This document shows positions 1,368 to 6,484 of a stretch of 6,484 bases of DNA, in pieces. The DNA comes from a virus. Taxonomy: Duplodnaviria; Heunggongvirae; Uroviricota; Caudoviricetes. Under the pieces are notes generated by a model. The model ran no database searches, was not told the origin of the DNA, and worked only from the letters and a program-made list of their open reading frames with translations. The stretch is taken from IMG/VR virus record IMGVR_UViG_2734482598_000009. One strand, 5' to 3'. Made by a program: the position numbers and the translations under genes. Within the stretch, counting starts at the first letter, position 1. Every line of letters starts with the position of its first letter.

Positions 1368-1492
1368 ATTTTCAACGCGTTTGAAGTTTTAGATGGTGCC
1401 GGAATAGAATCAAAAATACTTAAGTAGCGCGCAGGGAGAAGAGGGATGGACCCCGAACAGGGGAGTGCTATTTATCTGGAAGGATTCTGTTG

Positions 1493-1774
1493 ATGAAAAT
1501 CGAAGAATTACGTGAAATTTTTAGTGAAGATGGCCTCTATACTGTGCGCGTTGAGAATGGCGCTATTGTCAGCCACTGCCTTCCAGACTACACAATTCTG
1601 ATAATTCAGCCGTCTTTGCCAGCAGGCACGGGCGGCGCTCTCACGCATTTAAATCTGATTGGTACCAGCATCCCCCATGCACTGAAGAACAGGCCGAATG
1701 GCTCATTCAGTGTTACCGCAGGCGCGGATGCGAGGTTAAAAAAGCCCTTAGCCTCGACTACCGTCACTGGATAA
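1493..1774 (+). CDS. Rem-like small protein (positional analogue of Qin rem); probable frameshift into the alternative frame that ends at 1848
   Basis: RBS GGAAGGA at 1478-1484, ATG at 1493 (the ORF track starts at TTG 1490). The N-terminal ~50 residues look protein-like and the rest is low-complexity. A second frame, open 1555-1848 with no start codon, encodes a protein-like sequence and stops at TAA 1846-1848 beside the next gene's RBS and start. Confidence 0.4.
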   Translation: MKIEELREIFSEDGLYTVRVENGAIVSHCLPDYTILIIQPSLPAGTGGALTHLNLIGTSIPHALKNRPNGSFSVTAGADARLKKPLASTTVTG

Positions 1775-1849
1775 TCTCCGTCAGGCTCCCTTACTCCGAA
1801 CGGCCAACGCGTCCGTCCCGCACATTCCAGCAACGGATCTGGAGGTAAT

Positions 1850-2908
1850 GTGCGGGTATTACTTCGACCTGTTCTGGTACCGGAACTCGGTCTGGTTATC
1901 GTTAAGCCAGGCCGTGAATCAATGTCAGCATTCCATAACGGCAGAATACTGGTGGAGCCGGAACCAAAAAGCATGCGTAATCTGCCGTCCGGGGTCGTTC
2001 CTGCCGCTCGCCAGCCGCTGGTGGAAGACAAAACATTGCTGCCGTTTTTCAGTAACGCACGGGTGATTCGTGCTGCTGGTGGTGCTGGTGCATTGTCTGA
2101 CTGGCTGTTGCGCCATATTAAATCCTGCCAGTGGCCACACGGCGATTATCATCACAGCGAAACCGTCATTCACCGTTATGGTACCGGCGCAATGGTGTTG
2201 TGCTGGCACTGCGACAACCAGCTGCGTGACCAGACATCCGAATCACTCGAGCAACTTGCTCATCAAAACCTGTCAGCATGGATGATTGACGTCATCGGTC
2301 ACGCAATAAGCGGTACGCAGGAGCGTGAATTATCTCTGGCTGAATTATCCTGGTGGGCGGTCCGCAATCAGGTGGCGGACGCGCTACCGGAAGCGGTATT
2401 ACGTCGTTCGCTGGGGTTGCGTGCGGAAAAAATTCGCTCTGTGTACAGTGAAAGCGACATCATACCGGGAGAGCAGACAGCCACCAGCATACTGAAGCAG
2501 CGCACAAAAAATATTGCGTTACTGCCTCACGTCCACCAGCAACAGAACCCACCACAGGAAAAGACGGTGGTCAGCATTGCCGTTGATCCGGAGTCACCGG
2601 CTCAGTATCTCCAGCGCCAGAAATCACAACGGGAAGAGATGCCTGTATACACGCGCTGGGTAAAAACGCAGAAATGCATGACGTGTGGCAATCAGGCAGA
2701 TGATCCGCATCACATCATTGGTCATGGACTGGGAGGGATGGGAACAAAGGCTGATGATTTGTTTGTTATTCCGTTATGCCGTAAATGCCGTAACGAACTA
2801 CATGCCGGAGTAAAAGATTTTGAAGAGAAACACGGCAGTCAGCTGTTGTTGCTGATTCGTTTTTTAATGCACGCGAGAAATTCGGGTGTTCTGAAGTGGA
2901 AAGCATAA
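1850..2908 (+). CDS. DUF968-family prophage protein (YdfU-like) with a C-terminal HNH-like Cys/His motif
   Basis: 352-aa ORF from GTG 1850 with GGAGG at 1841-1845 (alternative ATG at 1922). C-terminus CMTCGNQADDPHHIIGHGLGG...LCRKCRNELH has CxxC...HH...CxxC...H. Sits immediately upstream of rusA, as ydfU-like genes do in lambdoid nin regions. Family call is from memory. Confidence 0.75.
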   Translation: MRVLLRPVLVPELGLVIVKPGRESMSAFHNGRILVEPEPKSMRNLPSGVVPAARQPLVEDKTLLPFFSNARVIRAAGGAGALSDWLLRHIKSCQWPHGDYHHSETVIHRYGTGAMVLCWHCDNQLRDQTSESLEQLAHQNLSAWMIDVIGHAISGTQERELSLAELSWWAVRNQVADALPEAVLRRSLGLRAEKIRSVYSESDIIPGEQTATSILKQRTKNIALLPHVHQQQNPPQEKTVVSIAVDPESPAQYLQRQKSQREEMPVYTRWVKTQKCMTCGNQADDPHHIIGHGLGGMGTKADDLFVIPLCRKCRNELHAGVKDFEEKHGSQLLLLIRFLMHARNSGVLKWKA

Positions 2909-3289
2909 ATGACCGAGCGCATAGAATTTGTTTTACCTTACCCGCCGACGGTGAACACTTACTGGCGTCGTCGTGGCAGCACATATTTTGTATCAAAAGC
3001 CGGGGAGCGTTATCGCCGGGCAGTGGCGCTTATTGTTCGCCAGCAGCGGCTGAAATTAAGCCTGTCCGGAAGGTTGGCAATAAAAATTATTGCAGAACCA
3101 CCGGATAAGCGCCGCCGTGACCTGGACAATATTCTGAAAGCGCCGCTGGATGCGCTGACGCATGCGGGGTTGCTAATGGACGATGAGCAGTTTGATGAAA
3201 TCAATATCGTTCGTGCTCAGCCAGTATCTGGTGGACGTCTGGGGGTGAAGATTTATCCCATAATGCTTGAAGGGCAGGTCAAAAAATGA
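2909..3289 (+). CDS. rusA: Crossover junction endodeoxyribonuclease RusA (Holliday junction resolvase)
   Basis: 126-aa product with PDKRRRDLDNILKAPLDALTHAGLLMDDEQF, matching the RusA catalytic core (PDRRRRDLDN...DALT.AG...DD). Start ATG 2909 directly follows the upstream TAA, and stop TGA 3287-3289 overlaps the next ATG. Confidence 0.9.
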   Translation: MTERIEFVLPYPPTVNTYWRRRGSTYFVSKAGERYRRAVALIVRQQRLKLSLSGRLAIKIIAEPPDKRRRDLDNILKAPLDALTHAGLLMDDEQFDEINIVRAQPVSGGRLGVKIYPIMLEGQVKK

Positions 3290-4005
3290 AACTGGAAGAT
3301 TTACCGNNNNNNNNNNNNNNNNNNNNNNNNNNNNNNNNNNNNNNNNNNNNNNNNNNNNNNNNNNNNNNNNNNNNNNNNNNNNNNNNNNNNNNNNNNNNNN
3401 NNNNNNNNNNNNNNNNNNNNNNNNNNNNNNNNNNNNNNNNNNNNNNNGCAGAAATAAAACCGGCAGTGATGCGTATTATGGCTTCGTATGCGTTTGAAGA
3501 TTATGCCCGTAGCGCGGCGAGCAAAAAACAGTGCCCCTGCTGTCACGGAAAAAAATTTATTGAAAGCGAGGTTTTTACAAACAAGATCCAGTATCCGGAT
3601 GGTAAGCCGCCGGTATGGGCAAAGTGTACGAAAGGTGTGTATCCGTCTTACTGGGAAGAATGGAAAAAAGTCAGGGAGGTGGTAAAAGTTGCCTGTCCGG
3701 AGTGTGGCGGAAAGGGTGAGGTTTCCACCGCCTGTAAGGATTGCCGTGGGCGTGGTGTCGCCATTCATCGTGAAGAGTCGGTAAAACGTGGTATGCCTGT
3801 TATCAGAGACTGCCAGCGTTGTGGTGGTCGTGGCTATGAAAGACTACCATCAACGGAGGCATTTAATGCTATATGCGAGGTGACAAACCAGATAACACGC
3901 GCGTCATGGGAAAAAACAGTTAAGAAATTTTATGATGCGCTGGTGACCCGGTTTGATATTGAAGAAGCATGGGCTGAGCGGCAGTTAAAAAAGGTAACTA
4001 GGTAA
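3286..4005 (+). CDS. Late antitermination protein Q (QuuQ-like) with four CxxCxGxG zinc-finger repeats; N-terminal part masked by Ns
   Basis: Lies between rusA and a PR'-like promoter. Contains CPCCHGKK, CPECGGKG, CKDCRGRG and CQRCGGRG. Frame is continuous across the 141-nt N-run (47 codons). Call is positional plus motif; 47 residues are unseen. Confidence 0.65.
   Translation: MKLEDLPXXXXXXXXXXXXXXXXXXXXXXXXXXXXXXXXXXXXXXXXXXXXXXXAEIKPAVMRIMASYAFEDYARSAASKKQCPCCHGKKFIESEVFTNKIQYPDGKPPVWAKCTKGVYPSYWEEWKKVREVVKVACPECGGKGEVSTACKDCRGRGVAIHREESVKRGMPVIRDCQRCGGRGYERLPSTEAFNAICEVTNQITRASWEKTVKKFYDALVTRFDIEEAWAERQLKKVTR
3307..3447. other. 141-nt run of N (masked or unsequenced) inside the Q gene
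   Basis: Literal N characters. Length is a multiple of 3 and the flanking frame is preserved. Confidence 0.95.
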
Positions 4006-5676: not shown

Positions 5677-5752
5677 GGCCCTTTAGCTCAGTGGTGAGAG
5701 CGAGCGACTCATAATCGCCAGGTCGCTGGTTCAAATCCAGCAAGGGCCACCA
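5677..5752 (+). tRNA. tRNA with CAU anticodon, ileX/ileZ-like (probably tRNA-Ile2 read via lysidine; tRNA-Met not excluded)
   Basis: Folds by hand into a cloverleaf: acceptor GGCCCTT/AAGGGCC, D-stem GCTC/GAGC, anticodon loop CTCATAA, T-arm GCTGG-TTCAAAT-CCAGC, encoded CCA. Close to the recalled E. coli ileX sequence. Confidence 0.85.
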
Positions 5753-5795: not shown

Positions 5796-6045
5796 NNNNN
5801 NNNNNNNNNNNNNNNNNNNNNNNNNNNNNNNNNNNNNNNNNNNNNNNNNNNNNNNNNNNNNNNNNNNNNNNNNNNNNNNNNNNNNNNNNNNNNNNNNNNN
5901 NNNNNNNNNNNNNNNNNNNNNNNNNNNNNNNNNNNNNNNNNNNNNNNNNNNNNNNNNNNNNNNNNNNNNNNNNNNNNNNNNNNNNNNNNNNNNNNNNNNN
6001 NNNNNNNNNNNNNNNNNNNNNNNNNNNNNNNNNNNNNNNNNNNNN
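5796..6045. other. 250-nt run of N (masked or unsequenced), probably hiding the rest of the tRNA cluster
   Basis: Literal N characters, flanked by a tRNA 5' fragment and a possible tRNA 3' fragment. Confidence 0.95.
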
Positions 6046-6377: not shown

Positions 6378-6484
6378 TGAGGTGTACTGGCAATAGCGGA
6401 CACTACCATTTGTTCTTTTTTTAAGCAGCCATCTGATGATATTTTTCCCTGAAGGCTGCCGGGGAGATATTCCCCAGACGAGAG
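6378..6484. repeat. Right copy of the 107-bp perfect terminal inverted repeat (partner 1-107)
   Basis: Exact reverse complement of 1-107. On the minus strand it repeats the first 11 codons of the left-end ORF, then diverges and stops after 21 codons. Confidence 0.9.

Follow-up and report, generated by a model that had tools for sequence, protein, structure and literature searches.

Genes and features of the locus

The stretch of DNA considered here (the window; 6,484 nt of IMG/VR record IMGVR_UViG_2734482598_000009) represents 6.27 kb of a lambdoid prophage and lies between two inverted copies of IS600 and, in several genomes, near ompW. Its genes occur in the order hokD, rem', 'orf92, DUF968/HNH, rusA, a Q antiterminator, an N6/N4 methylase and tRNAs. 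All of the features around rem' and 'orf92 to which coordinates are assigned below, including the DUF968 gene, are on the plus strand.

Three consecutive genes are of primary concern. The first, rem' (1493–1580), is the 5' fragment of a rem-like antirepressor gene and consists of codons 1–29 plus the first base of codon 30, preceded by its own Shine-Dalgarno-like AAGGA. The second, 'orf92 (1581–1848), is the 3' remainder of an independent prophage gene of 92 aa and comprises the third base of codon 4, codons 5–92 and the TAA stop; it is without the ATG, the first 11 nt and the ribosome-binding site. The third is a ydfU-like gene of the DUF968/HNH type (1850–2908; 352 aa), with a GTG start at 1850 and GGAGG at 1841–1845, whose product matches PF06147 (E = 2.6e-62), PF16784 (E = 1.9e-6) and the HNH endonuclease family phrog_96 (E = 1e-162). 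It starts 1 nt after the orf92 stop, and intact loci are arranged alike.

Upstream, a hok-type toxin locus (1060–1272) holds a 70-aa ORF that contains the 51-aa HokD from an ATG at 1117, and related loci match PF01848 at this place. Just upstream of rem', at approximately 1335–1370, a GC-rich stem precedes a T-run in the manner of a terminator. At the other end, a cluster of tRNA-Met(cat), tRNA-Arg(tcg) and tRNA-Arg(tct) follows the methylase gene, occupying roughly 5677–5752 and continuing into a run of Ns (12287–12536 in the Shigella sonnei locus L004). In L004, an IS600 copy comes after the cluster, and beyond it lies a DUF1737/SASA esterase gene. This layout presumably resembles that of Stx-phage late regions, but no stx genes are present.

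The window is bounded by a perfect 107-nt inverted repeat (1–107 and 6378–6484) that represents the inward-facing ends of the inverted IS600 copies. The DNA beyond IS600 varies between S. sonnei genomes (L004–L009), with the ompW side, tail-fibre genes or Dam/resolvase genes found there, and this variation suggests IS600-mediated rearrangements. Two runs of Ns, at 3307–3447 (141 nt) and 5796–6045 (250 nt), each replace 243 nt of L004 (9815–10057 and 12406–12648, respectively), and past the first mask the window coordinates no longer agree with those of the real genome. As a result of the masking, the Q-antiterminator ORF (3286–4005) appears to encode 239 aa, as compared to 273 aa in L004.

Reading frames across the rem–orf92 region

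A 93-aa ORF opens with the ATG at 1493 (an alternative TTG occurs at 1490) and terminates with the TAA at 1772–1774. The ORF is chimeric (1493–1774), in that residues 1–29 belong to Rem while the remaining 64 residues arise from the wrong frame of orf92. The initial annotation had noticed a low-complexity tail in this ORF, LPDYTILIIQPSLPAGTGG..., and rightly so, with the nonsensical portion (chimera tail ...VSHCLPDYTILIIQPSLPAGTGGALTHLNLIGTSIPHALK) beginning after approximately 29 codons. No family match for the tail was found in scans of Pfam, NCBIfam and PHROGs.

The same annotation had pointed to a second, -1 frame that was open, lacked a start codon, seemed more protein-like than the first and stopped where a real coupled gene would. 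Each of these observations holds up. The frame follows a TGA at 1552–1554, stays open across 1555–1848, and terminates at a TAA (1846–1848) that lies 1 nt before the GTG of the next gene. Its translation matches phrog_1212 with E = 7e-35. A scan of 1555–1848 showed that ATG, GTG and TTG are all absent from the frame, leaving only a CTG at 1576 and a few ATT, ATA or ATC codons. The frame is, in fact, 'orf92, and it is long, open and protein-like far beyond chance because it derives from a real gene of the phrog_1212 family. Within the overlap, the heptamer T TTA AAT (1648–1654) does fall in the X XXY YYZ register of the 1493 frame, as had been reported, and a shift at this site would produce a fusion computed at 118 aa, close to the earlier estimate of roughly 119.

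Homologous loci

A megablast search with window positions 1400–1900 against 5426 complete E. coli genomes gave matches in 4462 of them, and every top-ranked match was in two pieces, with about 750 nt of subject corresponding to the 501-nt query. Top-ranked records of a phage collection were split likewise, and the query was never recovered in one piece. Two of the E. coli loci (L001 and L002) are annotated with two CDSs at this position, a rem or rem-like gene of 83–86 aa and a 92-aa "hypothetical protein", while in a third (L003) the 92-aa gene alone occurs directly upstream of DUF968. In annotated loci, the stop of the 92-aa gene abuts the start of DUF968.

A further 80 viral-contig loci, L011 and L012 among them, were fetched with the 92-aa protein as the query. 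Across 83 related loci, an intact 92-aa ORF with its own Met was found in 80, and the window's junction occurred only in L013 and L014. Conserved overlapping frames, which the initial annotation had raised as a possibility, were thus not encountered; 80 of the 83 loci instead have two separate, non-overlapping genes. Similarly, the proposed alignment of homologues did not reveal a single uninterrupted frame, but two independent genes.

The two parental gene families

In L011, rem' is identical to positions 874–961, and the ORF there runs on to 86 aa. This intact Rem-like protein is 72% identical to the "protein Rem" of L002. Full-length members of the Rem family (PF27490 / phrog_340) are approximately 83–86 aa in length, and the window ORF does not match the family over that length: phrog_340 covers only its residues 1–29 (E = 4.9e-7), whereas the intact L001 protein gives a two-stretch match that reaches residue 84 (E = 4.4e-22). 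The Pfam label PF27490 Rem carried by the chimera is a precomputed annotation, and the local copy of Pfam returned no match. When Rem, orf92 and the chimera were scanned against Pfam and NCBIfam, nothing usable emerged, the sole result being a chance match to GvpM (E = 0.036).

[quoted passage not shown] 2023, PMC10448788). The rem gene of the K-12 Qin cryptic prophage occupies the same slot as the one in the window, just downstream of hokD and upstream of a ydfU-like DUF968 gene. Compared with K-12 rem, the window retains codons 1–29 along with the translation start, but residues 30–86, or two thirds of the protein, are gone and the frame that follows is foreign. Antirepression of DicA has been tested for K-12 Rem only, as distinct from the 72%-identical variant at this locus, and no antirepressor activity can be presumed for the window.

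The second family, phrog_1212, is encountered as a "hypothetical protein" upstream of DUF968 in lambdoid and Stx prophages of E. coli. A protein search with orf92 returned 155 clusters from Escherichia and Shigella that were mostly 90–92 aa in length; the shorter homologues were mostly partial sequences, and a few were longer. All 44 of the aligned full-length members start with Met, and Trp, Cys and Tyr columns are invariant. The match of 'orf92 to the phrog_1212 profile spans positions 1–66 of 66 (E = 7.1e-35), and its nearest full-length relative is 92% identical. The window therefore retains the whole conserved core of the family along with the native stop, which precedes the DUF968 start by 1 nt. 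The start codon and ribosome-binding site possessed by full-length phrog_1212 members are, however, missing, and 'orf92 is therefore a 5'-truncated pseudogene. Since the profile has only 66 positions, an alternative internal start was considered for orf92; it was rejected on account of the lack of any ATG, GTG or TTG in frame.

PHROGs lists phrog_1212 as of unknown function. In three phage records (ON470612.1, ON470619.1 and ON470583.1; hits H53–H55), the 92-aa gene sits upstream of a ydfU-like gene and bears the putative label "toxin to Rem". The function of orf92 has no bearing on its verdict as a pseudogene.

A 250-nt deletion fused the two genes

The window differs from intact alleles by a clean loss of DNA between positions 1580 and 1581. 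By k-mer mapping, window 1580 corresponds to L001 1681 and window 1581 to L001 1932, i.e., exactly 250 nt fewer, and in the alignment to L011 the gap is L011 962–1211. Both L011 and L012 match window 1400–1580 and 1581–1848 perfectly. Over longer flanks of 961 nt to the left and 1465 nt to the right, L012 is 100% identical and L011 has one mismatch (on the left), so that the only other difference between the window and these two alleles is the 250 extra nt at 1580|1581. On the orf92 side, window 1581–1848 is identical to L011 1212–1479, or nt 12–279 of the ORF at 1201–1479, and the same is true of L012.

The arrangement in L011 shows what the extra DNA encodes. A Rem-like ORF of 86 aa (87 if read from a TTG one codon upstream) runs from the ATG at 874 to a stop at 1134, and after a 66-nt spacer the 92-aa ORF (1201–1479) begins with GGAG-N9-ATG. 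Both ORFs are complete and separate in L011 and L012. A deletion of exactly 250 nt, with these limits, separates the window from a two-gene ancestral state, and it is reproduced across assemblies. The reverse polarity, with the intact allele as an insertion derivative and not the ancestor, is implausible, considering that the extra 250 nt complete two conserved ORFs.

The sequences at the ends of the missing segment are CACTGCC|GTATT on the left and GCAAAA|TTCCAG on the right. Inspection of L001 and of the parent allele L011 showed no microhomology or repeats at the deletion ends, and therefore neither slipped mispairing nor an IS-based mechanism can be named for the event. The TTTAAAT heptamer, an A6 run and a Pro-to-Thr change found in the window are already present in L011 and are therefore older than the deletion.

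The defining features of a deletion pseudogene are found here: an otherwise identical allele carries a segment that completes conserved ORFs, the length of that segment is not a multiple of 3, and the junction is reproducible. The region is best explained, with a probability of about 0.95, as a pair of pseudogenes generated by deletion within a heavily decayed lambdoid prophage of S. sonnei. Of the options offered by the initial annotation, that of a pseudogene arising from a mutational frameshift was accordingly right as to the pseudogene and wrong as to its mechanism, which was not a 1-nt indel but a 250-nt deletion involving two genes.

The events leading to this state are as follows. The ancestral order was hokD, the 86-aa rem-like gene, the 66-nt spacer, the 92-aa orf92 with its own GGAG and ATG, and the DUF968 gene. 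One blunt-ended deletion of 250 nt then took rem codons 30–86, the spacer, and the ribosome-binding site of orf92 together with the first 11 nt of that gene (ATGGCGCAAAA). Because 250 = 3 x 83 + 1, the rem frame enters orf92 out of register. Ribosomes that initiate at the rem ATG (1493) thus enter orf92 one base off, read 64 nonsense residues and stop at 1772–1774. The true orf92 frame stays open to its native stop at 1846–1848 with no start from which to read it. Both genes are probably inactivated, with Rem deprived of 57 of its 86 residues and orf92 incapable of being initiated, and the DUF968 gene should still be translated from its own GGAGG and GTG.

Recurrence in Shigella sonnei

The exact 93-aa chimera is listed in a protein collection as "hypothetical protein [Shigella sonnei]" from 679 contigs, and it was found in 965 blocks of an assembly index. 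Six loci (L004–L009), on S. sonnei contigs of 0.3–4.9 Mb, are identical to window 1380–1900. Recurrence on this scale means that the chimera is not a read or assembly error, and the sequencing error that the initial annotation had allowed for is contradicted by the identical junction in independent assemblies. An exact search for the junction 33-mer in the genome_contigs collection, which was read as one genome per GTDB species and hence as having no sample of S. sonnei apart from E. coli, returned no match; the result is uninformative for that reason and does not count against the deletion.

Intact alleles of the two genes are also recorded under S. sonnei names (488 and 453 contigs). The deletion therefore could serve as a lineage marker, and it appears either to be polymorphic within S. 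sonnei or to reflect two prophage copies per genome.

Can ribosomal frameshifting account for the locus?

One means by which the two frames could conceivably be joined is ribosomal slippage, and two heptamers in the overlap would be suited to it. The first, T TTA AAT (1648–1654), corresponds to orf92 codons Phe27 (TTT) and Lys28 (AAA) and the first base of Ser29. The second, A AAA AAG (1738–1744), went unmentioned in the initial annotation and represents the Lys-Lys codons of orf92 read one base off. It is only through the deletion that either heptamer falls in X XXY YYZ register. Altogether, 40 heptamers of this form occur in the window's 6093 non-N bases, a frequency that predicts about 0.47 sites in register for the overlap of 72 codons, as compared to the two that were seen; the heptamers alone are therefore not remarkable.

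Known bacterial -1 sites, including the A AAA AAG of dnaX, the orfA-orfB junction of the IS3 family and the phage tail-chaperone G/GT, are similar to the window in having in-register heptamers within a zero/-1 overlap. They differ in that the overlap and heptamer of the window are unconserved, are accompanied by no structure above shuffled sequences, and are by-products of a recent deletion. Across the 83 loci, the first site reads TTCAAAT in 72, TTTAAAT in nine (seven of them intact alleles), TTTAAGT in one and TTTAAAA in one, with TTT and TTC being synonymous Phe variants. No zero-frame ORF crosses TTTAAAT in the seven intact alleles.

Signals that might stimulate slippage were also sought, namely a hairpin or pseudoknot 5–9 nt downstream of a heptamer or a Shine-Dalgarno-like sequence approximately 10 nt upstream, and neither was found. 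Folds of 1655–1724 (z = -0.93) and 1745–1814 (z = +0.77) showed no stimulatory RNA structure relative to dinucleotide shuffles. The sole solid hairpin after the first heptamer begins about 24 nt downstream, not 5–9 nt, and the hairpin after the second is weak, with a total of -10.2 kcal/mol that 158 of 200 shuffles equaled. A stimulatory Shine-Dalgarno sequence for -1 frameshifting lies approximately 10 nt upstream of the slippery site; a GAGG does occur near A AAA AAG, 2 nt upstream of it.

Unstimulated heptamers in E. coli exceed the frameshifting background of about 0.055% by a factor of only 2.1 to 10 (Sharma et al. 2014, PMC4066793), and A_AA.A_AA.G is among the best E. coli motifs only when a stimulator is present (PMC4066793). 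Any slippage at this locus would probably be incidental and well under one percent. It is very unlikely that low-level -1 slippage at U UUA AAU, or at the stronger A AAA AAG, gives rise to 118-aa trans-frame proteins, for which the predicted peptides across the shift are ...ALTHLNSDWYQHPPCTEEQAEWLIQCYR or ...LKKALSLDYR. Were this the case, the product of the first slip would carry orf92 residues 29–92, essentially the whole conserved core, and the beheaded orf92 would be partly expressed under the translation signals of rem in a kind of accidental "frameshift rescue".

A stronger proposal, and the one favored by the initial annotation, is that programmed -1 frameshifting at U UUA AAU links the N-terminal, Rem-like part with the -1 frame in a functional fusion of approximately 118 aa. 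The heptamer is indeed in register, the -1 frame reads as open, protein-like sequence as far as a stop in a suitable position, and the shift would carry nearly the whole conserved phrog_1212 core (orf92 residues 29–92). These attractions are nonetheless outweighed on several counts. The two-frame overlap is confined to the deletion allele, with two genes in 80 of the 83 loci; the site is TTCAAAT in 72 of the 83, and the TTTAAAT of seven intact alleles cannot serve frameshifting. The only downstream hairpin begins about 24 nt from the heptamer, and its fold does not stand out from those of shuffled sequences (z = -0.93). In-register heptamers are already expected by chance (about 0.47), and unstimulated ones in E. 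coli reach only 2- to 10-fold over about 0.055% (PMC4066793). Moreover, the first 25 residues past Rem residue 29 would still be out-of-frame junk in any such fusion. With neither the heptamer nor the overlap conserved, a programmed signal is extremely unlikely, and the deletion pseudogene pair remains the preferred reading.

Other explanations

The deletion might instead have created a new functional gene, with the 93-aa chimera expressed and retained, for example, as a dominant-negative antirepressor fragment. A 93-aa product may well be made, considering that the chimera keeps the Shine-Dalgarno sequence and ATG of rem, and the ORF is unchanged in hundreds of S. sonnei assemblies. S. sonnei is clonal, however, so that persistence does not testify to selection. 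The tail consists of low-complexity sequence read out of frame and matches no family, and its variants on single contigs include missense and frame changes. A selected function for the chimera is, accordingly, exceedingly improbable.

That the junction is a sequencing or assembly artefact, whether a spurious indel or a mis-join in one contig, has practically no likelihood: the window is a short contig that ends in IS600 repeats and has masked N runs, and some relatives (P0007 and P0011) show homopolymer-length variants typical of read errors, but the junction and exact product also occur in 4.8–4.9 Mb S. sonnei contigs from several projects and in two IMG/VR contigs, and the intact allele differs by a reproducible 250 nt, not by the 1 nt that an indel or homopolymer error would entail.

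Significance and database variants

The locus offers a caution in the form of a negative result. A second frame that is open and protein-like, when paired with an in-register slippery heptamer, can mimic recoding, and here a gene-fusing deletion of 250 nt explains all of it. In terms of genome evolution, the locus represents one more decay event in Shigella, in which a Rem-type antirepressor gene and the adjacent 92-aa gene were lost from an IS600-bracketed defective prophage. It resembles Shigella reductive decay in its deletion of a length that is not a multiple of 3, in the IS600 copies that bracket a defective prophage, and in a neighboring IS1. The deletion itself is not at an IS end and has no junction repeat, and there is nothing unusual about it. 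Deletion pseudogenes are an already known kind of event, and no new mechanism is implied.

Two protein variants of the chimera occur among its database relatives. The first (P0007; 85 aa) is on two contigs, including one from a 4.8-Mb assembly, and reads as A5 in the A6 run at 1738–1743. The second (P0011; 118 aa) is on one Logan contig and reads as A7, with an extra A in the same run. The A5 and A7 lengths were deduced from the protein sequences, and the variants could stem either from read errors in the homopolymer or from true slippage mutations. P0011 would appear to mimic the trans-frame product by way of a one-base change in DNA length, and it carries no evidence of ribosomal slippage. 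Finally, an NCBI record of S. sonnei assigns L004 8001–8356 (equivalent to window 1493–1848) to one gene whose range of 356 nt, a length not divisible by 3, takes in both frames and whose recorded product has 93 aa, apparently because the annotator treated the two frames as one disrupted gene.
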